Origin: a virus
Direction: 5' to 3' (one strand)
DNA: 64,000 nt
Virus record (IMG/VR): IMGVR_UViG_3300021425_000014
Coordinates: 31,013 to 95,012 of that record
Positions 8,823 to 36,142 of the stretch are shown one piece after another. The first letter of the stretch is position 1; each line of letters opens with the position of its first letter. The translations under genes and the position numbers were made by a program. Below the pieces are notes generated by a model. It did not search any database. It had not been told where the DNA came from and was given only the letters and a program-made list of their open reading frames with translations.

Positions 8823-11800
8823 ACATTCAATGGTTAACTTTCATGGTCATACTAATCGTTCGTTTCAGGACGCGATTATTAGGCCAGAAGACTATGTAGA
8901 GCTTGCTGGTATGCTCAACTCCAAGAGCATCGCAATGTCCGATCACGGTAATATTTGTTCCTGGATTGAGTTCGAATCGGCAATGAAAAAAGCCGGTATC
9001 AAACCAATACTCGCTGTTGAATTTTATTTCTACTTTGCAGATGATGCAAAAGCTAAAAGTTCTCATCACTTGTTGGTGATCGCTAAGAACGATGTTGGTT
9101 ATAGAAATATATTGAAACTATTATATATGAGCAATATTCCACTTGAGCAGGGCGGTGGATTCTTTTATCGTCCGCGAATCTCAGATGAAATGTTGTTTGC
9201 AAATAAAGAAGGACTACTAGTTGGCTCAGCATGTCTTTCATCTCCAATCACTTCGAGACTCATCAATGGCGACGAAACCAATGCTCGTATTGTTGCCGAA
9301 AAGTTTAAACAGGAGTTTGGCGATAACTTCTTTATGGAAATATTCCCGCATAAACTAGCAATTCAAGCCGAAGCCAATCGCAAGATTGAGCAGATGGCTA
9401 AGGATATGGATATTCCAATTTGCGTGACGCTTGATTCGCATTTTAAGAATAATGAATACGAAGAAGCCTATTTGGTTAATGGCAGAAATCGGCGCAACAT
9501 CAAAGAAAAAGATGTTGATAGCAATCCAGATTGCCTAAAGGAAGCAGACTTCCATCTTAAGACCTCAGACGAAGTATATGAAACGCTTGTAAACAAACAC
9601 GGTCTTCAATCCTCTACCGTCTTAGCGGCGATGGATCACACTGTTCAGCTAGATAAACTAATTACTTTTGAATATAAGGACAAGTTCGAGCTTCCGAAGT
9701 TCTGCGAAGATTCTGATAAATACTTAGAAAAACTATTAAGCGAAAAGTTAATCAAGCATTTTGGCGGAAGGGAAAACATTCCACAAGAATATAAAGAAAG
9801 ACTTCGTTATGAGTTTACTGTAGTCAAAGAAAAGAAGTTTAGTGATTACTTTAATATTCTGTATGACACCGTAGAGTTCTGCCGAAACGACGGCATTAGG
9901 CTTGGTGGCCGTGGCTCTGTTGGTGGCTCGCTAATGGCCTTCCTGCTTGGCTTTAATCCTATGGATCCTATCAAGTACGCGCTGCCGTTTGAGCGCTTCC
10001 TGAACCCATTCCGCTCCAGCATGCCTGACGTTGATCTGGATTGCCCAGGCTCAAAGCGCGAATACATCATTGAATACCTGAAGTCAAAGTGGGGATCAAA
10101 ACGAGTAGTACAGGTAATCACATTCGGTGAAGTAAAAGCTAAAGTAGCAATTAAAGAAGTTGCCAAATATCTCGACATCCCGTTCCAAGAGGTAAACGCA
10201 CTAACATCGCACATCCCTTCCTTCGAGAAGGAAGATGGCGCTCTTCACGATCTTCCACTTAGCAGGGCTTTGGAGATCCCAGAGGTTGCTGTATATAATA
10301 AAAAGAATCCAAAACTATTTGACCTAGCGCTCAAGCTAGAAGGCACATATAAGAGTTATGGCGTACACGCTGGTGGCGTTGTAATCCTTCCAGATAATGC
10401 TGAGAACATCATTCCAGTTATGCATAAGAAGGGTGAGTCTGGCGCAGATGTCCAGATTTCAGCTTGGGAGAAAAAGGACATTGAAAAAATCGGGCTAGTT
10501 AAATACGACTTCCTTGGTCTAAACACTCTTGAGATACTTGGAGAATGCGAAAGATTAACAGGTATTAAGCTAGAAGATATTCCATTAGATGATCCTAAGA
10601 CTTGGCGCTTTATTCAAGAAGCTAAGTATATGAACTCTATCTTCCAGCTATCAGAGCCAAAGACGCGTAAATATCTAAGAGATGCAAAGCCAGAGAACCT
10701 ATTCGATCTGGCGGCTGTGAATACAGGCATTCGCCCCGGCGCTGACTGGGATACTTTCATCGAAGGCAAGAAAAAGCGGCAATACAATGGCAAGTTCAAT
10801 CTCCCAGAATTTAAAGAAACACTAAAGAATACATACGGTGCTATTCTATTCCAAGATGATATTCTATTCCTCTTTGCTAGACTATCAGAGCTAACCCTTG
10901 GGGAAAGTGATCTACTAAGGCGTGCTCTAGAGAAGGGCGACAGAAACGGCGCAAAACAATACGAAGATAAATTCATTTCCACTTGCAAATATCCAGAACT
11001 GGCATCAGAAATATTTGAGTATATATGCGGCTCCATGGGCTACGTCTTTAATTCCTCGCATTGTTTAGTTTATAGCCTAAATGGGTATTGGACAGCGTAT
11101 TTTAAATCTAATTATCCCAATGAGTTTCTTGTTGCAAATATTAAGTTTGCGCGATCTTCTGGCAAGATGACTGAAACTGAATCTATTGCTGAACTTATCA
11201 AAGAAGCGAGAGAGATGGGTATAAACGTAAAGATTCCCGCTTTCTCTAGGGCTAGAATTGAACCCTGGCACGATCGCTCAGAAGGTTGCGTTTACCTTGG
11301 TATAAGCAATCTAAAGGGCGTTGGCGAAGTTGCTGCTGGCGTTATCACTGAGGCAGCAAATAAAACAAATACTTTTAAAGAGTTTAGTGATTACTGCATT
11401 AATACAAAGGTTGAAACTGGCAGGATGCGTAAAGATGGGACTCCTATTATGCGTCCTCTGGTAAATAAATCACATATTCATACTTTAGTATGCATCGGAT
11501 TTTTCGGCGAAATAGAATCAGTAGCACAAGAATATGAGCAATTATTTAAAGAACAAGTTGAGATCAAGGCTGAGTCTGAGATGATAAACGAAGCTCTTGG
11601 TTTCGATTATTATTCACCGTTTGAAGGCTATAGGGCTAAGTTGCCAGATTATCTTCAAGACCAAGATAGGTATCTAATCATAAAAATTATTGAAACAAAA
11701 TCGGGGCAAAAGAACGGAAGAAAATGGCATATGTTAAAAGCTAACTCAGAGATCGGCCAGATCACAGCTTTCGCAGACTCCGTTGCTGGCATTGACAAGG

Positions 11801-17989: not shown

Positions 17990-18001
17990 CTGACAGAAAT
18001 C

Positions 18002-18030
18002 TTGCAAATGCGCGCGATGCATGTTAAAAT
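18002..18030 (+). promoter_or_regulatory. sigma70-type promoter
   Basis: TTGCAA-17-TAAAAT. Confidence 0.7.
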
Positions 18031-18054
18031 CTATTCAGCAAGATTGGAGGAGTA

Positions 18055-18306
18055 ATGAGCACAAAAGAAACAATAGATGCACTATATAAGCTAAATAAAA
18101 AACTAACATCTAACAACAGGAAGTTCAGCAACCAATCATCAGCAATGCTGGACGCTATCAAGCAATCTTTGATCATGATTCACGATCATAAATGTACAAC
18201 AAGGAATGAATTTGAAGAGCTTCTTGGTAAAATATCGGGCGCACTAACTCTATCAGTCACTAAATCTATTAACTACAGTAAGGACTACTCAGTAGAGGAT
18301 CGTTAA
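18055..18306 (+). CDS. Hypothetical protein
   Basis: GGAGGAG SD, own promoter. Confidence 0.7.
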   Translation: MSTKETIDALYKLNKKLTSNNRKFSNQSSAMLDAIKQSLIMIHDHKCTTRNEFEELLGKISGALTLSVTKSINYSKDYSVEDR

Positions 18307-18719
18307 ATATCATCAAAAGAAATGCACAAACTAGTCAGTCAAAAAATTTGGGAGGCGGATTAAGTTTCGCCTCCTTATATACATGTATATATAAAAACTT
18401 TTTGGCCCCATGGGGGGGATCTCCAAACTAAAAAAAGCAGCTAATATATGTTTTGAATTTTAATTCCTTAATTTTTTAACAGAAAATTTTTTCTCGCGCG
18501 AGCGAGCCCTCATTGTATTGCATCGTATTGAATTGTATTGTATTGCTTGGTATTGTATTAAGTTGTATTGTATTGTATTGCCGACACCCCAGCGCCCGAA
18601 CCCCAATACAATGTAATGCAATCAAACGCGGAACCCCAATACAATGCAATGTGATAAGCTAGATCACATTCCTTATACATGCGAGAAAAAAGTTTTTTTA
18701 GTTTTTTTCAAAAAAGGGC

Positions 18720-18748
18720 TTGCAATCGATCGCGCATTGCCCTATGAT
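18720..18748 (+). promoter_or_regulatory. Cassette promoter P1
   Basis: TTGCAA-17-TATGAT; same core as P2. Confidence 0.85.
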
Positions 18749-18787
18749 GTTTTTGTTCCCCACACAACAGAGGAGATTAAAACCATC

Positions 18788-19606
18788 ATGGCTTGCACAC
18801 TCATTAAGCCGGAAGCCCCCAAGTATCGCACTCCCAAGCGCGATGAATACAAGTCTATGGCGTTCTTTCATGCTCTTATGGATGACGCCAAGCGGGCATT
18901 AGAGCGGGCCCCGATGCCCGAGATCGGGAAAAATGGCAACAGCAAGATCGGCGCGCGTGGCGTCAAGGCATACACTCTGGTATATTCCGGCGTGGCGTGG
19001 CACGATTGCACGCCTACGATCGGCTGTAATTCCTGCTATGCGATGGGCTTTAGATACATGCATGCCATCGCACACCGCAAGGGTAAATCGTGGCTTTATT
19101 CCTACATGGCGCGGGAAGCGATCGAACCATTAGAATTTATCATCCGCCATGAGATCATGGAAGCGCTGATCAAGTCTAAGCGATTGGGCTTAACTCTGGC
19201 CGTCAGGATTCACGAAGCGGGCGATTTTATATCACCTGAACACGTCGCGATGTGGGATCGCATTGCAAAAGAATTTAAAACGGCTGTTTTTTGGTGCTAC
19301 ACTCGCTCAGATCTGGCAAGCGATGCCATGCGCGATGCCTTAGTATCTTTCGCGGAAAATGAAAATGTGCATTGTCGCGCATCATTTGATCCTGTTAATG
19401 ATGGGGAAGAAATCAAGCTTACCCGTAATGGTTTACCCGGCGCGATCATCGTTGGCACTAAGCATAAGGGCAAGCGCAAGGGCCCCGAACACGTTAAGGG
19501 GGCTGTTAATTGCCCCGAACAGCTTACAAATGGTGAGATCGGCTGTTCCGATTGTGGGCTATGCTGGAATAAATCCAAGCCTGTGATCCGATTCTGGAAG
19601 CACTAG
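18788..19606 (+). CDS. GP88-like Cys-rich phage protein (radical-SAM-like fold family)
   Basis: GNSKIG, C...C..CYA, RIHEAGDF, WCYTRS, CP...CSDCGLC; start at ATG 18788 after AGGAG (upstream part of the tracked ORF is promoter DNA). Confidence 0.75.
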   Translation: MACTLIKPEAPKYRTPKRDEYKSMAFFHALMDDAKRALERAPMPEIGKNGNSKIGARGVKAYTLVYSGVAWHDCTPTIGCNSCYAMGFRYMHAIAHRKGKSWLYSYMAREAIEPLEFIIRHEIMEALIKSKRLGLTLAVRIHEAGDFISPEHVAMWDRIAKEFKTAVFWCYTRSDLASDAMRDALVSFAENENVHCRASFDPVNDGEEIKLTRNGLPGAIIVGTKHKGKRKGPEHVKGAVNCPEQLTNGEIGCSDCGLCWNKSKPVIRFWKH

Positions 19607-19922
19607 CTTGTATTGTATTGCCCCCCGCAAGGGGGGCTTTTTTCTGCGTGCCCATATATTGCATTGTATTGTATTGCCGTTCGCTCTCGCCTGAGATTGT
19701 ATTGCATTGTATTGTATTGGCAGGCCCCCCGGCTTCGCCGGGCTCCGAGCCCCGATCGCGGCACAATACAATATCATACAGTATAAATAAAATCCCCAAT
19801 ACAATACAATTACATACATCGTTACACCAGCCGCTGGCCCCAATACAATGCAATCTAACATAGGGCCAGATCTGAGCCAGATCGAGCGAAAAAAGAAAAT
19901 CAAAAAAAGATCGTTTTGGGGC

Positions 19923-19951
19923 TTGCAATCGATCGCGCATTGCCCTATGAT
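19923..19951 (+). promoter_or_regulatory. Cassette promoter P2
   Basis: TTGCAA-17-TATGAT. Confidence 0.85.
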
Positions 19952-20011
19952 GGGTTTGTTAAGGCAACGGGGGGCACGGAAAACCCCCCCTGAATAAGGA
20001 GAGTGGCCGCC

Positions 20012-21001
20012 ATGGCACACGAAATGAAAAACAACGATCACATGGTTTCGGGTATGGGCATCAAGCCCTGGCACGGTCTGGGAACCGTCGTAGACGGGCT
20101 GTTGACGGCCCGCGAGACTCTGGAAGCCGCCAGGCTTGATTGGGAAGTTATCAAACACCCGATCACGCTGCAAGGTTCCGATCAAATCGTACCCGATTCG
20201 TTCGCAACCATCCGCACAGATGATCGCTCTGTGCTTGGCATCGTCGGCAATCAATACACGATTCTTCAGAATGTCGATGCTTTCAACTTTTTCGATAGCA
20301 TCGCAGAACGCGGCGATGCGATCTATGAAACAGCGGGATCGCTGTTTGGTGGGCGTAAAATCTACGTCACCGCAAAAATCCCAGGCTTGATCCGCGTTGG
20401 TGATGCGGGCAACGAAGATGTAAGCGAAAAATACGTATTACTCACAAACAGCCATGACGGCACTGGGGCTGTTACAGTCAAGCTGATCACAACCAGGGTG
20501 GTCTGCAACAACACGTTAACGGCAGCATTACGCGAAGGCGGGCGCGGTGTGTCGATCCGGCACTCCCAACTAATGCATGATAAATTGGCGCTTGCATCGA
20601 ACATGCTAGGGATCGCTAATCAGCGCTTCCAGCAAATGGAAGAAACATTTAACCAGTTTGCCAACGTGCAACTAAAAGAAATCGAGGTACGCGATTTCTT
20701 GCGGAAATGTTTTGAGCTTCCATCTGATGCAGATAAAGCAACCGATAAAGACAAACGCGCCATTGCCCAGGTAATGGAACTGCATGAGTCTGGCCGTGGC
20801 TCAGAGTTTACCCGTGGCACTCTCTGGGGGGCATTTAATGCCGTCACAGAGTGGACAAACCATTACCGCACATATAAAGAGCAGGCAAACGGTAACACGC
20901 GGGCAGATAACAAGCTTGGATCTATCTTTTACGGTCAATCTGCTACACTCACCGATCGAGCGTATGACCTTGCGCGGGATCTTGTGTTAGCTAAGCGCTA
21001 A
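20012..21001 (+). CDS. DUF932/TIGR03299-family phage/plasmid protein
   Basis: MAHE...PWHGLG, LGIVG..Y..LQN..AF.F.D, YETAGSL..GR, NSHDG, RVVCNNTL, TLWGAFNAVTE. Confidence 0.88.
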   Translation: MAHEMKNNDHMVSGMGIKPWHGLGTVVDGLLTARETLEAARLDWEVIKHPITLQGSDQIVPDSFATIRTDDRSVLGIVGNQYTILQNVDAFNFFDSIAERGDAIYETAGSLFGGRKIYVTAKIPGLIRVGDAGNEDVSEKYVLLTNSHDGTGAVTVKLITTRVVCNNTLTAALREGGRGVSIRHSQLMHDKLALASNMLGIANQRFQQMEETFNQFANVQLKEIEVRDFLRKCFELPSDADKATDKDKRAIAQVMELHESGRGSEFTRGTLWGAFNAVTEWTNHYRTYKEQANGNTRADNKLGSIFYGQSATLTDRAYDLARDLVLAKR

Positions 21002-21276
21002 CGCGGGGCAATGGGGGCCCCAAATCGGGGCCCCTTACCCGACACGTGGTATACTTACCATACCAGTTATACGATCGGCCCTTATGGGGCTTGTGTGAGG
21101 GCTTATGCACCTTTTATTTTTACCGCTTGTTTTAGTTTTTTGTTTCGCCGTTTTACTTATTCAATTTATAGGCATGGCGATCATTCACGGGATCTCTGGC
21201 CGTCGCAGATGGTATAGTTAATCTGTCGGAATCATCGGGGCCCCAAATCGGGGCCCCACACAGAAAGGATCATAAA

Positions 21277-21660
21277 ATGACAACTTCTCTAGACATGTTC
21301 AAGGTTCGCTGGGATAAGCAAGATACAGAATGGAACAGCAGCAACATAAACCCTATGGCTTGCCATGATTTCTTCGATAAATTCATTAATGATGTGGAGT
21401 TTCAAACTAGCATTAACTTGAATAACAACATTCAAATTTACAAAGATTATTACGTAAGGGGCAAATATAACTTTGTAAAAGTATTTCAATCGTTAATGCG
21501 GATCCTGAATACGTACCGCAAAAAAACGGGGGACACGACGATCACAACAATTGATGAAATTAAATTTATTGCCGATATGGTAGAAAATAACATATGGAAC
21601 AAACACCTAGTACCGTTAACCATTCAACGGGAATACATTAAGTCTATCTACTCCGAATAA
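21277..21660 (+). CDS. Cassette gene, hypothetical
   Basis: AAAGGA SD, upstream hairpin and TGGTATAGT extended -10, downstream hairpin. Confidence 0.7.
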   Translation: MTTSLDMFKVRWDKQDTEWNSSNINPMACHDFFDKFINDVEFQTSINLNNNIQIYKDYYVRGKYNFVKVFQSLMRILNTYRKKTGDTTITTIDEIKFIADMVENNIWNKHLVPLTIQREYIKSIYSE

Positions 21661-22699
21661 TCACAGAGCGCAGAGCAGAGAAACAAGCAAAGGGGCCCCC
21701 CAAAATCGGGGGCCCTTACTGCATGAATAATATATATATTATAGATAATACCATAAGCTTATAAGGTATAAAGAATAACACGAAGGTACAAACACTCAAG
21801 GAAAGAAAATCAAGCCCCTTCTAGGGCATTCTAGGCCCCTCTATTGAGGCCCTTACCGATCCAGTTTTCAAGCCCCCATGAAAAACCCTGTATAAACCTT
21901 TTTATTTGTCTGCTAGGGGCCCTTGAATCAATACAAAATACCCCCTTTGGGGCATCCCCAGCCTAAAAATAGCACTATAAGCCCCTTTCGGGCAGATTCT
22001 TTAAAAAATCCAGCGCCGCATAAGAGGCTGTACCATATTAAATTGTATTGTTAAGCTCTATGTTTAGTTCTTTTACTCCTCTATATATAGTATGATATTG
22101 TATTGATACTATATATATATTATAAGTTATTATATTGTATTGGGGTTATTAGGCCCCGTTTTGTGTTGTATTGTATTGTAGACTCAGTTCGACACCTTTA
22201 GTACTTTCGCACAGCCGAGTGGAATACAATTCAATACTCTACAATGCTTATTTTAGTTCAAAGATATATATATATTATATTGTATTGTATGGGCCCCCGT
22301 TTTCTGTGGGGTAGTTTAGACTAAAAGTTTAGGCCAACTTTTCGGGGCCCCTTACTTTGTAGTTATTAAACATGTATATATATAATAAATAAAAACTTCG
22401 AGCCCTATATATAGGATCCCCCACTTTCTTTTAACAGCTTTATATATATAATACAATACAATACATTAGGTGCCCCGCTTTTTCACCCAACCGCGAGCGC
22501 CCTGTATTGTATCGCATCACATTGTATTACATTGTATTGTATTGCCTTGTATTGTATTGTATGACATTGTATTGTATTGGTGATGGGTGGCGGTGTGTCC
22601 TCAATACAATATAATGCAATGCGAGAGCGAGGGGCCCCGGCAATACAATGCAATCTAATGCGAGCCTGATCTGGCCTGATCTGACACAAAAGATTTTTC

Positions 22700-22728
22700 T
22701 TGCAATCTTTCGCCAGATATGTTGTAAT
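22700..22728 (+). promoter_or_regulatory. Cassette promoter
   Basis: TTGCAA-17-TGTAAT preceded by GATCTG doublet. Confidence 0.7.
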
Positions 22729-22775
22729 TAGATTGTCGCACAAACGAGATGCCCAAACGGGCGGGAGACAAGACC

Positions 22776-23207
22776 TTGCATACAGAATTGACCAAAGACC
22801 AAATCGCTTTCTTGCGTAAGGCACGCCACATTTACTTCAGCGCACGTCGCAATGATGACGGTGTGTTTGTTGGCCACATCGAAGCAATCCAAGAAGATAA
22901 GGATAACCATTCCGTGGCGCGGATGGAAATCACAACACGCGCCATGATTAGTGGTGGGAACCGTGCTAACTGTTCGATCGCAATCGCTGGATTCTGTGAA
23001 GTCTGGCAAACTGTGTTAGCTTTCATCAAGTCTGGCGATTCGCTTGGCCTACGCTTTGAGGCCAACGGATTCCGCCCGTTGGATGAAAAGTACAATGACG
23101 TTAATCTTGATGTCTTGTATGTCAGTGTAGAACGGAATAATAAATTCTATAAATTCTTACTGGATGTTCACTTGACCAAGGAGGGTCATTACCGGATCAT
23201 CCAGTAA
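22776..23207 (+). CDS. Cassette gene, hypothetical
   Basis: TTG start after GGGAG; terminator 23213-23235. Confidence 0.7.
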   Translation: MHTELTKDQIAFLRKARHIYFSARRNDDGVFVGHIEAIQEDKDNHSVARMEITTRAMISGGNRANCSIAIAGFCEVWQTVLAFIKSGDSLGLRFEANGFRPLDEKYNDVNLDVLYVSVERNNKFYKFLLDVHLTKEGHYRIIQ

Positions 23208-23477
23208 ACCACGGGGCCCCGCAAGGGGCCCTTTTAACTAAAGTTAATTATATTGTATTGTATTGCATTAGTTCTTTTAATTGTATTGTATTGGCGTACT
23301 GGCCTCCGAGAAATCGGGGGCCTTTACGTTTCAATACAATTCAATACTATATATTAAAAACATTGTATTGTATTGTATGTGTAATTGGTTGGCCCCGAAA
23401 TCGCGGCCCTCAACCTACCAATACAATACTATAATATATATACCAAATATTAAATAAAAATAGTTTCAAAAAAGGGC

Positions 23478-23506
23478 TTGCAATGATTCTCAGGATATGC
23501 TTTAAT
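23478..23506 (+). promoter_or_regulatory. Cassette promoter
   Basis: TTGCAA-17-TTTAAT with TG extension. Confidence 0.7.
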
Positions 23507-23557
23507 GGTATTGTCAGGTTATGGCCCCACCTTTGAGCGGGCCCGGAGATCGGAACC

Positions 23558-23749
23558 TTGCCTAACACAAAACTTATCAGCAAGCACGGAACCAAAGATC
23601 GCGTTTTCTGCCCCCGGTGTTTGAGAGAGTTGCAGAGTGATATCAAAAGCGATATAAGTTTTTGGTTTCATTGGGCAGATAATTATCACGCGGCTGGACA
23701 CCAAACGGAAGAGCCATGCCAGCGGTATGCAGATACTTGCGGAGATTAA
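23558..23749 (+). CDS. Cassette gene, small hypothetical (CPRC)
   Basis: TTG after GGAG; terminator follows the stop directly. Confidence 0.65.
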   Translation: MPNTKLISKHGTKDRVFCPRCLRELQSDIKSDISFWFHWADNYHAAGHQTEEPCQRYADTCGD

Positions 23750-23988
23750 GCCCTGCCCCCTTCGGGGGGCTTTTTTATTATGCCTATATATATTGGATTG
23801 TATTGTATTGGCGATCGCCATCCGCCAAATCGCGAACACTCACTCTTTGAATACAATATAATATATTAATCTTATTGCATTGTATTGTATTAAGGCACCC
23901 CGATTCGCGGGCCCTTAAAACTTACCAATACAATACACTATAATAATAAAACCAAAGATCTGGCTCAGATCAACATGACCTTGATCAC

Positions 23989-24017
23989 TTGCGCCATGCC
24001 CCCCATCGTGCTACACT
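23989..24017 (+). promoter_or_regulatory. Cassette promoter
   Basis: TTGCGC-17-TACACT with TG extension. Confidence 0.7.
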
Positions 24018-24067
24018 AAGGTTGTTCGGTTAAGCGATGGCGCTGGACGCGCCGGGAGGTAAACGCA

Positions 24068-24259
24068 ATGGGTGATTTAAACTGGCCTTTCTGGCACACG
24101 CAAGAAGAGTGTGACGAGATGAACAAAACGCTTGTGGATGATATGAAAAACAACATGAGCAAGATTCTGTGGAACAACGATCATGATACAGTTCAAGAAA
24201 TTCTTTCGAGATGGGAAGAAAACACAGGCATCGATCTTCGCCTTGAGCGCGATTGGTAA
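24068..24259 (+). CDS. Cassette gene, small acidic hypothetical
   Basis: GGGAGGT SD after leader hairpin. Confidence 0.8.
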   Translation: MGDLNWPFWHTQEECDEMNKTLVDDMKNNMSKILWNNDHDTVQEILSRWEENTGIDLRLERDW

Positions 24260-24274
24260 AAAGGGAGGTAAGCA

Positions 24275-24559
24275 ATGCAGACCACGCAAGTTTATAACAA
24301 CGTCATCGAGGCTGTTGTGTGCAACAGCATGGCGTATGACTTTCAATTACCCATCGGCAAGTTCGATGGCGAAAGTTTACTCAAAAAGATCTGGTTCAAG
24401 ATTCAAAAGAAAGGGAATAGTAAAAGCCCTGACATCCAAATGCAGCGCGCCATGTGGCTAAGCCCTTGCAGGTTCGATGGAAGCGCTTTAAGGTCAATGG
24501 ATATGAAAGGGCAATGGTGGGACACAGGCATGGAGCTTGTAGCCAAGCGAGACATTTAA
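24275..24559 (+). CDS. Cassette gene (second cistron), hypothetical
   Basis: GGGAGGT SD; terminator at 24572. Confidence 0.75.
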   Translation: MQTTQVYNNVIEAVVCNSMAYDFQLPIGKFDGESLLKKIWFKIQKKGNSKSPDIQMQRAMWLSPCRFDGSALRSMDMKGQWWDTGMELVAKRDI

Positions 24560-24783
24560 TAGTATTGTATTGCCCCCCGAGAGGGGGGCTTTCTCGTATG
24601 CCCCTGTGTATTGTATTGTATGGGCGGATACCCCTGCTTAATCAAAATTCAAAAAAACGCGCCGCCGCATATTCGATACAATTCAATTCAATGCGATGAA
24701 TGTATGGTATTGTATTGTATAAAAACGCGGGCACTCACTCTTTGCCAATACAATACAAACAGATCTGACTCTGATCTAAACAC

Positions 24784-24812
24784 TTGCGTCATTAATATAT
24801 ATCTGCTAGAAT
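24784..24812 (+). promoter_or_regulatory. Cassette promoter
   Basis: TTGCGT-17-TAGAAT with TG extension. Confidence 0.75.
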
Positions 24813-24848
24813 TAAAGAGTAAAGGCAAGGGCTCAAGCGAGCCGGAAA

Positions 24849-25088
24849 GTGAAGGTTATGATCCCTTTTGCTGAGATTGAATTGTGGGATGACTACGGCC
24901 ACAAGAAGTGGATTGAATATGACAATATTGATGATGTCATATGGGGCCATAAATGGGATGACTCGGACGATCATGAGTGTGAGAGATCGGGTAACGTAGA
25001 AATCCACAAGCTGGGGCCCAAGGATCATTATTATTGTATTATCATGGTTAAGAAATACGGGATGCCCAAACTCGAACTCCAACTCTAA
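24849..25088 (+). CDS. Cassette gene, small acidic hypothetical
   Basis: Between promoter and terminator; start GTG 24849 or ATG 24858. Confidence 0.7.
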   Translation: MKVMIPFAEIELWDDYGHKKWIEYDNIDDVIWGHKWDDSDDHECERSGNVEIHKLGPKDHYYCIIMVKKYGMPKLELQL

Positions 25089-25325
25089 CTTAACAGCTTT
25101 ATATTGTATTGCCCCTCTGGCTCTGGCTGGCGGGGCACTTTTGCGCTCAGGCCCGCCTCGCTGTATTGCATTGTATTGTATGCCCCCGTCGTATTGCATT
25201 GTATTGTATTGGTGGCCATCGACCCACGGCAATACAATTCAATTCAATGTAAAGGTTGTATGGTATTGTATTGTATTGGTCGGATCCGGGGCCCGATCTG
25301 GCCTGAAAAATGTTTTCAAAAACTA

Positions 25326-25355
25326 TTGACTTGGCCATGGACGGCATGTTACTCT
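25326..25355 (+). promoter_or_regulatory. Cassette promoter
   Basis: TTGACT-18-TACTCT with TG extension. Confidence 0.7.
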
Positions 25356-25401
25356 TGAGGAGTCAACACAAGCGATGGCGCTGACGCGCCGGGAGGCTCA
25401 A

Positions 25402-25770
25402 ATGCTCAAGAACATGATCGCCACGGATGCCCTGGGTGGGTTGCAGGTCAAGGTGTACCGCAACCTTCACAAGAAGTGCCTCAGCGTGTGGCATGCGGGC
25501 TATGTCGTGGCCCATGTTGACTCCATCACGCTGGATGGCGTGCTTTTCAAGGTGAACGAAGCTGGACGCCAACGCGTGTTGCGTGAGAAGAAAAAGAACG
25601 TCCACGCTTTCGTGACGGGCACAGTCACAGGCGTTAACGCGCCCCCACGGGGGGCTGTTCCCGTGTCCTACAACCCTTATAAGGGGGCTTCTTTCACCCT
25701 GCCTGATGGCCAGGCCATTATGGCGGCCGGAACGGTCACGGTGACGACCAGGGGGGCCTTCGTAGACTGA
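25402..25770 (+). CDS. Cassette gene, conserved phage hypothetical (VYRNLH...GRQRVLREKKKNVHAFV family)
   Basis: GGGAGG SD before ATG 25402; recognisable widespread phage motif of unknown function. Confidence 0.8.
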   Translation: MLKNMIATDALGGLQVKVYRNLHKKCLSVWHAGYVVAHVDSITLDGVLFKVNEAGRQRVLREKKKNVHAFVTGTVTGVNAPPRGAVPVSYNPYKGASFTLPDGQAIMAAGTVTVTTRGAFVD

Positions 25771-25928
25771 GGGCCCCGGCTCTCTTTCCCCATAGGGATC
25801 AATACAATGCAATGCAGTCCAATACAATGCAATTCAATGCAACGGTTATATTGTATTGTATTGTATGGCCCCCATCCGGGGGGGCTGATCTGGGGCTGAT
25901 CTGGGCTGAAAAATCTTTTTTGAAATCG

Positions 25929-25957
25929 TTGACATCTCGCTTGAAACTTGCTACTAT
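25929..25957 (+). promoter_or_regulatory. Cassette promoter
   Basis: TTGACA-17-TACTAT with TG extension. Confidence 0.85.
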
Positions 25958-25998
25958 TAAAGAGTAGTCGTTATGGCGCTGAGCGCCGGGAGGTCAAA

Positions 25999-26232
25999 GT
26001 GAAGGGCATCGACATCATTCGGGAATCGGACAACGGCGGAGAAATCATCGGATTTCGCATCAGCGCCAAGCACGGCGGATTCGGGTTTGACGTACCGCTT
26101 GTAGACTTAGTCAACGCTGAGGTGTTCACGGAAGAGAAGCGCGAGGCGCTGCTCAAGCGATACCAGGCCTACTTGGCCGATATCGTCAAAACCTGGGAGC
26201 AGCCGGGCACGGCTAATCGCTGGGATGTTTAG
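25999..26232 (+). CDS. Cassette gene, small hypothetical (DLVN family A)
   Basis: GTG after GGGAGGT. Confidence 0.75.
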   Translation: MKGIDIIRESDNGGEIIGFRISAKHGGFGFDVPLVDLVNAEVFTEEKREALLKRYQAYLADIVKTWEQPGTANRWDV

Positions 26233-26389
26233 CCCAGGGCCCCCCGAAAGGGGGGCTTTTTTCGTGTGGCTTATCAATACAATACAATTCAATACAACGC
26301 GGGGGGAATATATTGCATTGTATTGTATGGGCGGGATCGCCGTGCGCCATTCGGCCTCATCGGGCCAGCAATGCGGTGCGCAACGCAGC

Positions 26390-26495
26390 ATCGCATTTAA
26401 GGGCCCTGTGAGGGCCATGAAGGGGCTTATAGGTATCCGGGAGGGTGATTGTACCCTGAACGCCATCAGGGGCCTTTACGGGCCTTGTGGTGGCT
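26390..26495. repeat. About 100-bp dyad element with AGGGTGATTGTAC core (copy 1; others at 27993, 29743, 30537, 37100)
   Basis: Exact 13-bp core in five places, CCTTTA 31-32 bp downstream of core start in all five. Confidence 0.85.
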
Positions 26496-26518
26496 TGATC
26501 TGGAATAAAAAGTTTTTC

Positions 26519-26547
26519 TTGACATCCAATGATGGGGTTGATATGAT
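26519..26547 (+). promoter_or_regulatory. Cassette promoter
   Basis: TTGACA-17-TATGAT with TG extension. Confidence 0.9.
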
Positions 26548-26594
26548 GAAAGAGTCAGGCAAACGAGATGGCGCTGACGCGCCGGGAGGTCGAA

Positions 26595-26756
26595 ATGATG
26601 GTAAGCTTTCAGGAAGAAGAAAAGGGATTCTTGGTAGCGGTGACTGAAGACGATTTCGTCTTCATTCCCGTTCAGAACGGGAACCGCGTAGCCGCCTTCG
26701 AAGAGGCGATCGAGCAGCTTAACGAATGGTTCTATGCATCACTTAAATACAAGTGA
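26595..26756 (+). CDS. Cassette gene, small acidic hypothetical
   Basis: GGGAGGT SD; terminator 26763. Confidence 0.75.
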   Translation: MMVSFQEEEKGFLVAVTEDDFVFIPVQNGNRVAAFEEAIEQLNEWFYASLKYK

Positions 26757-26956
26757 TGCGAGGCCCCCGAAAGGGGGCTTTTTTCGTGCCAATCATCAAT
26801 ACAATACAATTCTATACAATCACTGCATCGCATTGTATTGTATGGGGAAGAATCGGGGGGCCATACCTACTTCCCTTTGAATCACCAATACAATACAGTT
26901 TAATATATGACCTGATCTGGCCTCAAAATATTTTTAAAATAGTTTCTGAAAAGGGG

Positions 26957-26985
26957 TTTACATTCCCAGGTGAAACGGGTATGAT
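26957..26985 (+). promoter_or_regulatory. Cassette promoter
   Basis: TTTACA-17-TATGAT. Confidence 0.8.
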
Positions 26986-27035
26986 ATTAATGTAAGGGTT
27001 AAGCGACACCCCTGAGTCGCGGAGAACAGACCACC

Positions 27036-27272
27036 ATGGCTATCTTCAATGTTGTAATGGTTAAGGATCCGATGATGGCCCCCGTGCTCGTTGAGCAGCA
27101 CAAAGTCGAGAGCCTGAAAGAGGCTCGTAAGATCCTCAGCCAGTGGGCTGAAGATGGGGACAAAATAGTAGCCCTCAAGAAGGCGCCGCTTCCCTCAGGG
27201 CGCCACGTGACGCCACTGGTTATACAGACGATGGAAGAGGATTCCGATATCTTCGGACAATACATAGATTAA
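27036..27272 (+). CDS. Cassette gene, small hypothetical
   Basis: GGAG SD after hairpin; terminator 27278. Confidence 0.75.
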   Translation: MAIFNVVMVKDPMMAPVLVEQHKVESLKEARKILSQWAEDGDKIVALKKAPLPSGRHVTPLVIQTMEEDSDIFGQYID

Positions 27273-27506
27273 GCGAGGGGCCCCGCGAGGGGCCCTTTTT
27301 TTTATGCCCCTGTGTATATTGCATTGTATTGCCAGGGCGATCGCCCATCGGGACTTATCAATACAATTCAATGCAACCAATGTATTGCATTGTATTGGAC
27401 GGGGGCCCCGGCGAGCTTGCGCCAAATCGCGCGCCCTTACTCTTTGCAATACAATACAATCTAATTCATACCTGATCTGACCTTGATCTGACACAAGTTG
27501 ATTTAT

Positions 27507-27535
27507 TTGACATCCTTCCCGATAGTTGTTATTAT
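27507..27535 (+). promoter_or_regulatory. Cassette promoter
   Basis: TTGACA-17-TATTAT with TG extension. Confidence 0.9.
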
Positions 27536-27599
27536 AAAAGAGTCAAGGCAAGCGGGCCCGACGCCCGCCAGATGAACCCCAGGGGTTCGGGAGGTAAAC

Positions 27600-27821
27600 A
27601 TGACCATCACCATTGCCGTTGTTATCGCTGTGCTTACATTTGCGCTGGGCATGTCGCTCGGCGTGAGCCTTCAGCAATCATACGGTAATCGTACCGAAAG
27701 AATTTTATATGAGGCGTACCGCCAGGCGCGGGATGAGGCCCTTCACCTTGAAAGGAAAATCGCCACGGGCGAAAGTTTTAGGAGAAACGTCATCCGCTCA
27801 ATAAAGAAAATCTCAGACTAA
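27600..27821 (+). CDS. Cassette gene, small membrane-anchored protein
   Basis: N-terminal TM helix; GGGAGGT SD. Confidence 0.8.
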   Translation: MTITIAVVIAVLTFALGMSLGVSLQQSYGNRTERILYEAYRQARDEALHLERKIATGESFRRNVIRSIKKISD

Positions 27822-28209
27822 CACAGGGCCCCCGAAAGGGGGCTCTTTTTTTATGCCTGTTAATATATTGCATTGCATTGTATTGTTAGCCCCCCTTTTC
27901 TTCGTGCGTTCGAAACATCCGATAAGCCCCACAGCGTAGCACCCTTTTAAAGCGTGCTGTGAGCCCGTTAAACGCGTTTCAGGGGGGTGGGTAGGGTGAT
28001 TGTACCTTAGAACAATTTAAACGCCTTTAAAGCCCGTATGTTTAATCAATGCGATCGCCCATAGAAGATCAATACAATTCAATTCAATGCAGCCGTGGTA
28101 TCGCATTGTATTGTATGGACACAGGGCAGGGGCAAAAGCGGGGCCCGTCACTTTTTGCAATACAATATAATTATATATAAAAGGGTTGATCTGGGTTGAT
28201 CTGGTTTAG

Positions 28210-28238
28210 TTGACATCATAAGCCTGGTTTGATATGAT
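28210..28238 (+). promoter_or_regulatory. Cassette promoter
   Basis: TTGACA-17-TATGAT with TG extension. Confidence 0.9.
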
Positions 28239-28278
28239 TAAAGAGTAAAGGTTATGGCCTGATGGCCGGGAGGTTCTA

Positions 28279-28533
28279 ATGCGCGAGTACGTGGGCAATG
28301 TCGAGGATCTGTGGGAAAACCCTTTCGATGGCTATTGCCGTGCGCTTGACCGTTATGACCGCTTTGCGGTCTATGAACGGGACACGGACGGGTATGGATT
28401 CCCGATCTATCATTGCTGGTCAAGCAAGGAGCAGGAAACCATATGGTTCACAAGAGAGGACGCCGCCATGCGCTGGTGTCAAAACATGATGGTTGCCCTA
28501 CGACTTGAGGGGCATTATATCTGGATGGTTTAA
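28279..28533 (+). CDS. Cassette gene, small hypothetical
   Basis: GGGAGGT SD; terminator 28537. Confidence 0.8.
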   Translation: MREYVGNVEDLWENPFDGYCRALDRYDRFAVYERDTDGYGFPIYHCWSSKEQETIWFTREDAAMRWCQNMMVALRLEGHYIWMV

Positions 28534-28671
28534 CAGGGGGCCCCGCAAGGGGCCTCTTTTTTTATTGCCATAAGTCCATACAATACAATTCAATAACTTG
28601 ATTAGATTGCATTGCATTGTATTGCCCCGATACCGGGCTGATCTGGTCTGATTTGACAAGAAAAGTTTTTC

Positions 28672-28700
28672 TTGACATCCCGCTTGCGATTTGCTATTAT
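28672..28700 (+). promoter_or_regulatory. Cassette promoter
   Basis: TTGACA-17-TATTAT with TG extension. Confidence 0.9.
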
Positions 28701-28748
28701 TAAATTAGTCAAGCAAACGAGATGGCGCTGAGCGCCGGGAGGTTGAAA

Positions 28749-29072
28749 ATGGCAAAGCAACTTTGGTACGACATCAACAAGTTTCACGAAGGAAAGAATG
28801 TAGCCGATTGCCTTATCGGCACTGCAAGCCGCGAGGATCTGCACCATTATTTCTTGGTGCTGAATCGCTACAATGACACCAAAACGGGATACCTCCCTGG
28901 GGCATATCTTGAAAACCCAGAAAAAGATTATGTACTTGTGTCGGGAACGGAAACTACTGAAGAAATCGAAAGTTTCATGAAAAAAATTGTCCAGTGGTCA
29001 CTGGAGGATAAGGATTTTTCGGAAGAATTCAACGAAAGAACAAGACAGCTTGAAAAGGAATTCCAAGCTTAA
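28749..29072 (+). CDS. Cassette gene, hypothetical
   Basis: GGGAGGT SD before ATG 28749. Confidence 0.8.
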   Translation: MAKQLWYDINKFHEGKNVADCLIGTASREDLHHYFLVLNRYNDTKTGYLPGAYLENPEKDYVLVSGTETTEEIESFMKKIVQWSLEDKDFSEEFNERTRQLEKEFQA

Positions 29073-29256
29073 AGCCAAGCCCCCGCAAGGGGGCTTTTTT
29101 CTTGGCTTACCTTCCATACAATACAATGCAATTTAATGATTGTATGGGATTGTATTGTATTGATTAGTGGCAGGGCGCTAAAGGGCGATCGCCCATCGCG
29201 GCACAGCAATACAATGCAATGAGATACATCACCTGATCTGGCTTGATCTTAAAATG

Positions 29257-29285
29257 TTGACATCAGGTGTGCCAGATGTTATTAT
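29257..29285 (+). promoter_or_regulatory. Cassette promoter
   Basis: TTGACA-17-TATTAT with TG extension. Confidence 0.9.
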
Positions 29286-29344
29286 TAAATAGTCAAGGCG
29301 ACGGGGCGCTGCCCCAAGATGGCCCCAGTGGCCGGGAGGTTCTA

Positions 29345-29551
29345 ATGTTGGTTGACGCGATCAAGCTCAAGGGCAAAGGTTCTGACGCGGCTGATCCCGC
29401 TTATGGGATCGCTTTCACCGATAAGGATGGGGTCATCCTCGACATCACCGTCGAGGATCTGGTGAACGCTGCGGCGTTGCACAACCCATACCTTGACAAG
29501 GTGTCGTACCAAAAACATATCGAGCGTTGCATCGAAAGGATTTTCGAATAA
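29345..29551 (+). CDS. Cassette gene, small hypothetical (DLVN family B)
   Basis: GGGAGGT SD before ATG 29345. Confidence 0.8.
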   Translation: MLVDAIKLKGKGSDAADPAYGIAFTDKDGVILDITVEDLVNAAALHNPYLDKVSYQKHIERCIERIFE

Positions 29552-29830
29552 AGCCAAGCCCCCGCAAGGGGGCTTTTTTCTTGGCACATGTTCAATACAA
29601 TACAATTCAATGCGTTTAAGTTATTACATTGCATTGTATTGGCGATAAACCGTGCCCCCGGCGATCGCCCGTGGCGTCGTACACCACGACATCGCGTTTA
29701 AGGGGCCTGTGAGGGCCGTAAAGGGGCCTCTCGGTGTCTGGCAGGGTGATTGTACCCTAGCAGGGTTCAAGGGCCTTTACGGGGCTCCTGTGGCCTGATC
29801 TGATGGTTGATCTGGAGTGAAAGATTTTTG

Positions 29831-29859
29831 TTGACATCCTGTGACCGGCTTGCTATGAT
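29831..29859 (+). promoter_or_regulatory. Cassette promoter
   Basis: TTGACA-17-TATGAT with TG extension. Confidence 0.9.
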
Positions 29860-29923
29860 GAAATAGTCAAGGCGACGGGGCCCGATGCCCCGGTTATGGC
29901 CCCCAGGGGGCCGGGAGGTAAAC

Positions 29924-30178
29924 ATGACCATGATCGTTAACAAAGAGTACACCGTAAAGCTGGCTATAAACGGTAGCCAAGATCCGGTGGATCCAGTGGG
30001 AACCTTGAGGTTCCACGGTTTCACCGTTATCGGTGAAAACGGCGAAGAATTCTTCGTCGACTTTCAGGACTTGGCCAACGGTCGCCAGGTCGATGAAAAG
30101 TTCGACGTGACGATCTTGTGGCGGCTCAGTGAGTTCTACAAGTCACAGTTTCTCAAGGTTATCGGCGAGAAACTGTAA
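29924..30178 (+). CDS. Cassette gene, small hypothetical (DLAN family C)
   Basis: GGGAGGT SD before ATG 29924; terminator 30186. Confidence 0.8.
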   Translation: MTMIVNKEYTVKLAINGSQDPVDPVGTLRFHGFTVIGENGEEFFVDFQDLANGRQVDEKFDVTILWRLSEFYKSQFLKVIGEKL

Positions 30179-30824
30179 CCCAAGGGCCCCCCGCAAGGGG
30201 GGCTTTTTTTATTGCCCCCTATTATATGGCATTGTATTGTATTGCCCCCGGCATATAGCCCCTCCCCATCAATGCCCCTGTTAATCAGAAAAATAAATGT
30301 TTCACGCGCCGTATATTATAAAAATAATCGTTCGGTGGCCCCGAATGGCGGCCAATACAATTCAACACAATTCAATTCAATTCTAAAACATTTTATTGCA
30401 TTGTATTGAAAAAAGTTTCTGGGGGTGCGCAAAAAGCGGGAAGATTAATTCCCCACATTTTTCACTCAACCCTTAAAACTTAACACCCTTTTCTTTGCGT
30501 ACAGAATGGCGTTAAACACGTTTCAGATACCACGGCAGGGTGATTGTACCTTGAACGATTTTCAGGCACCTTTACGGGGCTTGCGTAGGCTGTTTTAAAT
30601 TTAACTCACATCAGGCTTGTTCAACTTGACGTTGAATTGACACAGCCTGAAAAATCCCATACAATACAATTCAACACATGGGGCCATGATCATGAGTTTT
30701 CCCCATGTATAGGATCCCCAACTTTCGACCAATAGCTTTAAAAACCCTTTCCCGCTTTCGATCGCCAGCCCCGGCGCACAGGGCGAAAAAAGTCGATTTT
30801 TGCTGTATTGTATTGTATTGTATT

Positions 30825-31310
30825 GTTAACCTAACCTTACCCTCATCTTAACCTGTTCTTAACCTTCGATGTCAACTAAGAGATCTTTAAGAGATCGTTA
30901 AATTTAGGTTAAATTTTGGTGTAAAATATTTTACCATATTTCGTCGAAAATGTCAATTAAAAGATCTTTAAAAGATCTTAAAATTTAGGTTAAATTTTGC
31001 TACCACGAAAATCCAGATCTGTCAACTAAATTTAGGTTAAAGATCTTTAAATTATGGTTAAATTTTACGATCACAGATCTCGTCGAAAGTCAATTAAATT
31101 TGAGTTAAAGATCTTTAAGTTTAGGTTAAGTTTTACGATCAGATTTTTCGTCGAAAGTCAATTAAAAATAAGTTAAAGATCTTAAAGGTTTGGTTAAATT
31201 TTACAGGCACATTTTTCACCGAAAGTCAATTAAATTCAGGTTAAAGATCTTTAAGATTTGATTAAACTTTTTTCGTCGAAAAAAATCAGATGAATCGGAT
31301 TTTGTCAATA
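30825..31310. repeat. About 68-bp tandem repeat array with phased TTAA boxes and the TTAAAGATCTTTAA palindrome
   Basis: GTCAA unit starts at 30871, 30952, 31021, 31089, 31157, 31225, 31304; CTTAACCT-type 11-bp repeats at 30825-30865. Confidence 0.9.
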
Positions 31311-32024
31311 CTTTTTTACAATTTGTAATATTCCTGATCAGTAATATTTGTTGTCAGATCCGCAACGTGACAACAAAAAAAAATCATGGAAAATCTAATA
31401 TGTCAATGGTTCAGATCAAGCTCAGATCATGTGAGTCTCATGCACTCAACATGTTGCCACGGCGGAAAAATCATGCGAATCGGATTTTGTCAAGCTTTAC
31501 ATTGCTTCACATTATCGTATGACATAAAAACGATCCCCGAAACCGGCTCCCAGTGCGGGCCCGTTTACAGGATGCCCGTAAAGGCCCTTGATCTACCCTT
31601 GCCCTTATGTCCGGACGTTGGACGCCTCAAGGGGCCCGGACGGGCATCCAGGGGCCCTAGGATGGCCTGTGAGGGGCCCGCCATCGGGCACGATTTGCCG
31701 ATCACGTCGAACATACAATCGAACAGTCATGCGCGCGCCATGCGTGTCGCGCGGGTACGCTGTGCGCTTGACGCCGTGATCTGACGTCAAACCCTGATGT
31801 GGCGCGGGTTTCCGGGTTTCCAGATCTAGCACGGTCAAACTGGATTGAATTGTATTGAAAGACGGGAAACGTAGACGCCGTGCCGGTTTCCGGGTTTTCA
31901 TGCTTGGATAGGCTCAAAATCGAGTCGATTTTGGGCTGTACATCAGGGGCCCGATGTGAGACTATATTCATGGCCAAGGGGCCACGGGGCAAAGCGGGGC
32001 CCGATACCCGCGGGGAGATACCAC

Positions 32025-35899: not shown

Positions 35900-36142
35900 A
35901 TGAAACTTAAGCCCACGATTGGCAATAAACGGATTATCGAGTTGGTGAAGGATATTGAAGGTATTTTAAACCATGAAGAGCTTGCTGTCAAGCACGGAAT
36001 TTCAATTCACAACCTCAGATACTTGCTTAGGAAAATGACCGATCTTGGCATCATTCAGGTCGAGAGAACAAGGAATTCTGACGGAGTATTTGGCCCAACT
36101 TACGTAACCGTATTAAAATGGCCTGAGCTAGATGTACGATAG
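35900..36142 (+). CDS. Winged HTH DNA-binding protein
   Basis: EELAVKHGISIHNLRYLLRKMTDLGII. Confidence 0.7.
   Translation: MKLKPTIGNKRIIELVKDIEGILNHEELAVKHGISIHNLRYLLRKMTDLGIIQVERTRNSDGVFGPTYVTVLKWPELDVR

Follow-up and report, generated by a model that had tools for sequence, protein, structure and literature searches.

The intergenic spacers of a 12-kb gene island in an uncultured phage contain many short arrays of the pentamer NATTG. The feature is real, its statistical support is overwhelming, and so far it is unique. The phage is represented by a metagenome-assembled virus record of 95,012 bp (IMG/VR record IMGVR_UViG_3300021425_000014). The window analysed here is the stretch of 64,000 nucleotides at positions 31,013-95,012 of this record, and coordinates refer to the window unless stated otherwise. 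The arrays are confined to spacers, are conserved in a position-specific manner, have a defined anatomy and share their core with a known operator repeat. We tentatively regard them as multi-site operators on double-stranded DNA for a sequence-specific protein, encoded by phage or host, which would read an ATTG(T) core; we consider this putative function quite possible.

Pentamer arrays occupy the spacers of a single island

In the complete genome, 76 runs of (NATTG)n with at least two units were found, 43 on the plus and 33 on the minus strand. Nearly all of these (71 of 76) are located at 18.5-30.8 kb of the window and only five lie outside positions 18,000-31,000. When inner units were allowed one mismatch, 67 arrays of two to eight units were called in the island compared with 71 in the whole window; most are short, with two to four units. 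The island has 200 exact NATTG units (114 plus, 86 minus), which cover 1,000 bp. Almost the complete array sequence (990 of 1,000 bp) is non-coding, the island itself being 52% non-coding. The initial annotation, made from the sequence alone, had described many pentamer arrays in the spacers and a near absence elsewhere, which these counts bear out. The range given there, 18511-30825, includes nearly all runs but misses one further three-unit array just outside, at 31843-31857. To our knowledge, a 12-kb region that is half non-coding is rare in phages, and the spacers are therefore probably functional.

Distances between ATTG motifs on the same strand peak in the island only at multiples of 5 (129, 70, 34 and 18 pairs at 5, 10, 15 and 20 bp, respectively), while the distribution outside the island is flat. 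An unbiased test of the core, independent of array calling, took pairs of ATTG anchors at a distance of 10 bp and considered the unit in the middle (n = 70). In this unit, position 1 varies (T29/C26/A13/G2). Positions 2-5 are conserved in 67, 68, 64 and 66 of the 70 cases, corresponding to 91-97% conservation of ATTG. Interruptions of the arrays are substitutions, not insertions or deletions, and the register is maintained. The proposal that ATTG is kept while one base varies, in a fixed register, is thus confirmed. At the GC-clamped end of nearly every array the perfect 9-mer ATTGTATTG is found. Dyad patterns built from two arrays gave 9-10 matches, as against 0.00 expected in shuffled sequences.

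The arrays are part of a composite cassette

Every gene of the island forms an autonomous cassette with promoter, leader, hairpin, short open reading frame (ORF) and terminator; there are about 18 such cassettes. The promoters are near-consensus sigma70 promoters (TTGACA-17-TATGAT/TATTAT, often with TG), and at least nine matches to TTGACA-17-TATAAT, at 10-11 of 12 positions, occur in the island spacers. Strong GGGGCCCC-type terminators at the 3' ends of the cassettes are found in the same spacers as the promoters. Downstream of the terminator, a complete spacer contains a plus-strand array (A, about TATATTGCATTGTATTG), a GC-rich linker, a minus-strand array (B, CAATACAATTCAATG), a short centre, a plus-strand array (C), a second GC-rich linker and a minus-strand array (D, CCAATACAATAC), followed by two GATCTG boxes, an A/T tract and the -35 element. 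Reduced spacers contain B and C, either alone or together with D. The arrays do not overlap the -35 and -10 elements, and their distance to the -35 element is variable. Tracts are longest in the three cassettes with TTGCAA-type promoters: two of the spacers have about 13-15 units, and the third has nine units distributed over two plus-strand arrays.

Pairing of arrays around GC-rich linkers, as reported initially, holds for the convergent pairs (plus, then minus), whose linkers are 18-60 bp long with a mean GC content of 0.60. The divergent B-C pairs, in contrast, have short centres with a mean GC content of 0.38. About 9-10 of the 12 dyads share a centre of 9 nt, and their total length is 39, 44 or 49 bp. 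In an alignment of nine dyads, the information content is 1.65-1.73 bits per column in the arms, as compared with 0.62 in the centre and 0.6-0.7 in the flanks. Such a profile is what a dyad operator would leave if its central spacer is not contacted.

The spacers are paralogous, with module families recurring at 60-85% identity, and no mutual similarity was detected by blastp among the 18 island proteins. Only three of these belong to a Pfam family (GP88-like, DUF932 and L5 gp82-like). The arrays are retained in at least 15 spacers despite linkers that vary in length (18-60 bp) and sequence, and despite the unrelated genes.

Further conserved elements occur around the arrays. Before most cassette promoters (19865-29816), paired GATCTG boxes about 11 bp apart are followed by a AAAAGTTTTTC-like A/T tract; a gene for a D12-class (Dam-like) methyltransferase is found at 4611-5417. 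The leaders at 25960-29925 have a conserved 5' end, (A/T)AGAGTCAAGGCAA, and a short hairpin (GGCGC TGA(C) GCGCC or GGCC...GGCC) directly before the ribosome-binding site GGGAGG. An upstream sequence starting with ATGGCGCTGA had been considered as a conserved amino terminus. Since at least one copy has its ATG in a different frame, the leader is a hairpin with Shine-Dalgarno sequence in the 5' untranslated region and not a common amino terminus. Five elements of about 110 bp (at 26442, 27993, 29743, 30537 and 37100) share an invariant core, AGGGTGATTGTAC, and have a conserved CCTTTA about 31 bp further downstream. This core forms a GGGT/ACCC dyad which displays one GATTGTA unit, the same pentamer as in the arrays. 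Four of the five copies belong to island spacers, in which they separate array C from the GATCTG boxes.

The array core is identical to the operator repeat of a plasmid regulator

A literature search for literal 10-mers from the arrays led to the operator of KfrA from the IncU plasmid RA3, for which TGTATTGTA is the experimentally defined repeat (Lewicka et al., 2021; PMC7783346). The RA3 operator, O_K, immediately follows a terminator and overlaps the promoter kfrAp; of its five 9-nt repeats, three are direct and two inverted. KfrA needs three to four repeats for binding in vitro, and their orientation hardly matters (PMC7783346). We verified the operator site at 4759-4889 of NC_010919. In the phage genome, TGTATTGTA has 50 exact copies (36 plus, 14 minus), 49 of them in the island, as against about 0.7 expected.

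Phage arrays and O_K thus share the identical repeat (TGTATTGTA/TACAATACA), its occurrence in both orientations and the position just after an intrinsic terminator. They differ in that RA3 has one site with five contiguous repeats of 9-bp period which overlaps its own promoter and autoregulates kfrA, whereas in the phage the period is 5 bp, so that the 9-mers overlap, and 67 arrays extend over 12 kb, none of them on promoters. The RA3 precedent shows that a protein with a helix-turn-helix and a coiled coil can read exactly this sequence cooperatively and in mixed orientations. The match is no proof of homology; the period is 5 bp instead of 9 bp, promoter overlap is missing and a KfrA-type protein was not found. 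The identity may be due to convergence or chance.

In the proposed mechanism, units repeated every 5 bp would place in-phase sites on one face of the helix every 10 bp. In the commonest module, the dyad of 39, 44 or 49 bp, two arrays diverge from a centre that is fixed in length (9 bp) but free in sequence. The arrays are one module of a composite cassette comprising terminator, arrays, GATCTG boxes, UP-like A/T tract, sigma70 promoter and conserved leader. Cooperative occupancy on both sides of each gene could bridge or coat the spacers. Coated or bridged spacers could switch or insulate the complete 12-kb island, for instance through early shut-off or the separation of supercoiling domains between strongly transcribed cassettes. 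More speculatively, a protein not recognizable by sequence might polymerize on the approximately 67 phased ATTG arrays flanking every early cassette. The half-non-coding island would then be a switchable nucleoprotein domain serving early shut-off, supercoil insulation or host-factor capture, a proposal we regard as rather doubtful.

Several observations weigh against operators. Protein-binding arrays, one of the functions suggested initially, fit the data best, with the KfrA 9-mer as precedent, but a binding protein to go with them was not found. KfrA_N (PF11740) has no match at E<=1 in the phage genome, and neither phmmer nor blastp with RA3 KfrA retrieved anything significant from all 429 open frames. 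Among the island ORFs, no DNA-binding Pfam domain was detected; the only winged-helix signal, below threshold, comes from an 80-residue protein at 35900-36142. ParB_N, AAA_31 (ParA) and Rep3_N are all absent from the genome, taken as 94% complete, and ParR/RHH types were not specifically searched for; the partner segregation gene of a plasmid-type centromere (parS/parC) was thus not found. Since the arrays do not overlap the -35 and -10 elements and lie at variable distances, simple occlusion of promoters is not likely. In contrast to RA3 with its period of 9 bp, the units are repeated every 5 bp, and most arrays have only two to four of them. Other sigma70 promoter-like matches elsewhere in the genome lack arrays, which therefore are not needed for promoter activity. 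Finally, array conservation was derived from paralogous spacers of this one genome and could in part result from recent duplication or gene conversion among them.

Two candidates for a KfrA-like protein were rejected. A weak blastp match at 9703-10014 of the genome (minus strand) is a stop-to-stop frame without a start codon. A coiled-coil protein of 576 residues has no similarity to KfrA; with a sub-threshold match to Peptidase_S78 (E 0.0037), it is consistent with a prohead protease or scaffold.

If the arrays are operators, one factor would address about 18 independent strong promoter-terminator cassettes by means of a 5-bp repeat code. Such a compact natural example would help to understand how uncultured phages shut off early genes or insulate strong transcription units from each other, and would offer a design for synthetic multi-cassette control. 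The match to the KfrA repeat suggests the type of the candidate protein, an amino-terminal helix-turn-helix with a coiled-coil oligomerizer. A domain formed by a polymerizing protein would, if real, be a phage-scale iterated-operator system distinct from promoter-early stem-loop (PeSL) cassettes, stoperators and VIPR.

Alternative explanations for the arrays

The arrays could instead be homology tracts of a mobile, shuffling regulatory cassette without a dedicated binding factor, the spacer spreading by recombination or gene conversion and the short repeats in both orientations serving as microhomology for gain, loss and inversion of ORFan cassettes. A precedent exists in the PeSL cassettes of T4-type phages, for which recombination between terminator-promoter modules has been described (Arbiol et al., 2010, PMC2839356; Comeau et al., 2014, PMC4122927). 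The paralogy of spacers beside unrelated genes agrees with shuffling, as do the closest similarity being that between neighbouring spacers (81% identity and the same terminator in 29070-29162 and 29549-29641) and the end of between-spacer similarity at or just after the arrays, for example after the C array in 29119-29162 versus 29593-29641. Shuffling leaves unexplained, however, why only ATTG is invariant while linkers and dyad centre are free, and why the centre is fixed at 9 bp; moreover, PeSLs function without such arrays. We consider this explanation unlikely. If the arrays are such recombination joints, the mobile-cassette idea would extend beyond T4-type phages. A role as hairpins or cruciforms, with B:C and A:D pairing in single-stranded DNA, supercoiled DNA or read-through RNA, appears still less probable. 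Such elements might act as supercoil-absorbing cruciforms, nuclease or resolvase substrates, RNA processing sites or insulators. The regular alternation of orientation (+ - + -) would suit them. As single-stranded DNA, the dyads beat shuffled sequences weakly (-5 to -10 kcal/mol, z -1.9 to -4.5), the whole spacer 27305-27470 can nest A:D around B:C (z -2.8), and some GC linkers can fold on themselves (23279-23346, z -5.8; 23873-23935, z -2.5). Cognate dyad arms, however, form 12.67 of 15 Watson-Crick pairs versus 12.98 for non-cognate arms (permutation p for excess 0.998), convergent partner arms likewise show no excess (15.0 versus 15.7 of 20), and a mismatch at stem position 10 is conserved instead of compensated. 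Folding of the linkers is only marginally above shuffles (combined z -2.2, driven by two linkers), and no Rfam family matched. For these reasons the arrays are conserved as a sequence motif and not as pairing partners, and the absence of excess complementarity argues against a structure-only role, which would not need an invariant ATTG. Co-evolution of hairpin arms is not supported, the motif leaving little variation for such a test. The stems are AT-rich and weak, and the arrays, being downstream of strong intrinsic terminators, are probably little transcribed. The suggestion of cruciform or hairpin substrates for cassette recombination is further weakened because no recombinase was found in the phage, integrase (PF00589) and RAYT Y1 transposase (PF01797) both being absent.

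It is very improbable that the tracts are transcribed and read as RNA in a 5-nt register by a polymerizing or wrapping protein, each pentamer being taken up by one subunit in the manner of vrRNA-Vipr filaments or TRAP-type rings. VIPR vrRNAs consist of 9-16 YNNGG units with conserved GGY, hypervariable NN and an invariant structured tail, next to a gene for a Vipr RAMP protein; the Vipr proteins were originally found by structure, and VIPR loci are phage-borne and situated in long intergenic regions (10.64898/2026.04.26.720920; 10.64898/2026.04.26.720927). The arrays resemble them in their phage-borne, intergenic location, strict 5-nt phasing and combination of conserved and variable positions. 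NATTG formally fits the alternative vrRNA patterns YNNNG/NNNNG (10.64898/2026.04.26.720920), and two composite tracts reach 13-15 units. The logic is reversed, however: we inspected the VIPR locus of phiSUSP1, where the NN positions are hypervariable, whereas the arrays have invariant ATT and G and a single variable base, mostly T, with which no target could be encoded. A vrRNA has one orientation per RNA, whereas the arrays mostly have two to four units, occur on both strands behind terminators and are followed by differing sequences instead of an invariant 3' tail. No similarity to the Vipr and Vap proteins of phiSUSP1 was detected by sequence (best phmmer E-value 0.04 over 429 frames), and there was no Pfam RAMP match. 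Neutral microsatellites, generated by replication slippage in dispensable DNA, are hardly credible. Short AT-rich tandem repeats with unit numbers differing between spacers (2-8) are what slippage would produce, but it would not account for one unit type at 67 sites with the remaining genome nearly free of it, for substitutions concentrated at one position, for interruptions without indels or for a stereotyped order, orientation and 9-bp centre. The preference for selection over slippage expressed in the initial annotation is thus supported by the single variable position in five, by the information contrast between dyad arms and their surroundings and by the persistence of arrays beside unrelated genes.

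Comparison with other repeat systems

With paralogous spacers (60-85%) beside unrelated genes, the island has the PeSL design, in an unrelated phage and with extra modules. As in PeSLs, a repeated G/C stem-loop terminator is combined with an A/T-rich tract upstream of a consensus sigma70 promoter (PMC2839356; PMC4122927), and the modules flank and precede unrelated ORFans in a plastic early region. PeSLs differ in having the stem-loop between or overlapping -35 and -10, or immediately beside them, and in lacking pentamer arrays, dyads and GATC boxes; the phage spacers, unlike PeSLs, measure 230-1,100 bp. Nor is the phage T4-like: it has a DnaE polymerase, no GenBank phage exceeds 25-30% identity in the capsid and sheath proteins, and module recombination is putative here.

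REP/BIME elements of bacteria are likewise extragenic, located downstream of genes and of alternating orientation with alternating short and long linkers, and REP sequences are known to bind proteins (PMC2817692; PMC3333891). REP units are GC-rich imperfect palindromes with a GTAG-type head, dispersed genome-wide and linked to RAYT. In contrast, the phage has AT-rich direct pentamer runs concentrated in one island (71 of 76) and no Y1 transposase (PF01797). Also similar is the untranslated repeat region (injection stop signal) in the first-step-transfer DNA of T5, a virulent phage (Davison, 2020; 10.1101/866236): it is large and non-coding, consists of repeats and palindromes and is embedded in early ORFans which have strong promoters of the host type. 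It is, however, a single region around eight DnaA boxes and not a motif in every spacer. Integron attC cassettes were rejected on account of the absence of PF00589 and of the promoter and terminator of each cassette. NtcA sites were dismissed with only two occurrences of GTA-N8-TAC in the island, and fixed-position activator sites with the varying distances to -35.

The phage and its relatives

The phage encodes a DnaE-type polymerase, DnaB- and DnaG-like proteins, RNR, dUTPase, ClpP and two DNA methyltransferases. With capsid, tail sheath and baseplate genes also present, it is a contractile-tailed phage. The two ends of the record (positions 1-140 and 94873-95012) overlap by 140 bp with one mismatch, and the overlap falls in a Gly-rich repeat belonging to a fibre-like gene. 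The assembly has therefore probably been closed to a circle and opened within a gene, and its ends would not be a natural terminus. In comparisons with GenBank phages and IMG/VR, the proteins reached 25-39% identity at best, apart from the widely shared ClpP with about 50-54%. Queries with DUF932, ClpP and DnaE against IMG/VR yielded, ClpP apart, no match closer than 38%. Closer relatives with 98% to 60% identity are present in the protein database (P0001-P0023, P0121-P0128). The genome contains no tRNAs, and best matches of RNR, ClpP and sheath are scattered over several phyla, so that the host was not pinned down. The HIP1-type octamer GCGATCGC occurs seven times as compared with 0.7 expected; five copies, at 23811, 27337, 28051, 29185 and 29661, are palindromic cores of island linkers (GGGCGATCGCCC). 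A cyanobacterial host was not concluded from these octamers, which are too few and in five of seven cases simply island linkers.

By means of an RmlD profile, one true relative was found, a 44.8-kb IMG/VR fragment (IMGVR_UViG_3300047564_003626) syntenic to the window from 44.9 to 33.0 kb; in tblastx segments, identity of the capsid protein reaches about 87-89%. There are no arrays in its 44.8 kb, the fragment stopping 1.9 kb past RmlD, before the expected place of the island. At the fragment end (12560-12672 of the relative), at least eight tandem copies of the 14-mer GAGCACCTGCCTCG lie just past GATC-rich non-coding DNA. The assembly may have broken at a repeat-rich island of its own.

No analogue of the arrays was found in IMG/VR, GenBank phages, GTDB genomes or among the metagenome matches listed. 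In IMG/VR, (TATTG)3 gave only single chance matches and giant-virus or eukaryote-like satellites, and the dyad pattern gave 27 single matches, of which 11 were inspected and proved to be coding-looking sequence without arrays. In metagenomes, none of the matches listed for the convergent pattern (at least 120) is related to this phage, and the two densest loci among them (L211 and L174) are eukaryote-type satellites. The 22-base dyad pattern had six single matches in GTDB genomes, which is chance level. The only similarity to GenBank phages that megablast and blastn detected in the island is a stretch of about 60 bp within the L5 gp82-like gene.

Positions of the arrays in the island

The examples named in the initial annotation are all present. 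The spacer before the GP88-like gene (18511-18651) has plus-strand arrays at 18511-18545 and 18551-18580 (13 units), separated by a GC linker from minus-strand arrays at 18604-18623 and 18637-18651. Before the DUF932 gene (19611-19855), three plus-strand arrays (19611-19620, abutting the terminator stem, 19657-19676 and 19695-19719) precede three on the minus strand (19764-19773, 19797-19811 and 19841-19855). The spacer before an ORFan of 152 residues (22454-22655) contains the second of the named examples, a plus-strand tract at 22503-22579 of about 15 units including degenerate ones, between minus-strand arrays at 22454-22463 and at 22602-22621 and 22641-22655. Upstream of this spacer, scattered two-unit arrays (five plus, one minus) occupy 22041-22287, each beside TATATA-rich DNA and a small GC hairpin. 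They belong to a 1.1-kb stretch (21660-22749) without any ORF of at least 50 residues, in which TATATA-rich blocks and small GC hairpins followed by T-runs accompany the six arrays; decayed cassettes or non-coding RNA genes may be present here. Solitary direct arrays without inverted partner, which favour the proposed binding sites, occur in 22041-22287 and at 27866-27885 and 30806-30825.

A full A-A-B-C-D set is present at 23251-23428, with plus-strand arrays at 23251-23265 and 23279-23293, a minus-strand array at 23332-23346, a plus-strand array at 23361-23375 and a minus-strand array at 23419-23428. The next spacer (23791-23935) has A at 23791-23810 (plus), a degenerate B, C at 23873-23887 (plus) and D at 23926-23935 (minus). 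At 24563-24755, two plus-strand arrays (24563-24572 and 24609-24618) are followed by a B-C dyad of 44 bp with 9-nt centre (24674-24717) and by D (24746-24755, minus). Three plus-strand arrays (25102-25111, 25164-25178 and 25192-25211) precede a 49-bp dyad, also with 9-nt centre, at 25230-25278. In the spacer at 25800-25863, a minus-strand tract (25800-25839) and a plus-strand array (25849-25863) form a dyad of 44 bp with 9-nt centre at 25820-25863. The dyad named initially (26275-26325) combines 26275-26294 (minus) and 26311-26325 (plus) around a centre of 16 nt.

Dyads of 44 bp recur at 26797-26840, with D at 26886-26895 (minus); at 28070-28113, with A at 27866-27885 (plus), one AGGGTGATTGTACC element and D at 28158-28167 (minus); at 28581-28624, where the dyad, with 9-nt centre, is the only array module between terminator and GATCTG boxes; and at 29119-29162, with D at 29207-29221 (minus). 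The canonical A-B-C-D order is seen at 27317-27461 (plus-strand array 27317-27331, 39-bp dyad 27359-27397, minus-strand array 27447-27461), where A, when single-stranded, pairs with D around a B:C hairpin. A 49-bp dyad with 9-nt centre at 29593-29641 is followed by a AGGGTGATTGTACC element.

The terminal untranslated region (30230-30825) contains arrays at 30230-30244 (plus), 30353-30382 (minus), 30394-30408 (plus), 30662-30671 (minus) and 30806-30825 (plus). A promoter match at 30637-30665, TTGACA-17-TACAAT, takes its -10 hexamer from the array at 30662-30671. Every minus-strand array holds TACAAT, which matches the -10 consensus at five of six positions, at 5-bp steps. The last array of the region, (TATTG)4 at 30806-30825, abuts tandem units of about 68 bp (30869-31270). 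These are present in 4-5 copies, are 62-90% identical and rich in TTAA-N7-TTAA and GATC, and lie inside a 1.2-kb ORF-free stretch. They are a candidate iteron-type origin, in a genome without a Rep3, ParA or ParB gene. The isolated array at 31843-31857 (plus) is situated in the gap before an ORF of 196 residues and reads GATTG AATTG TATTG.

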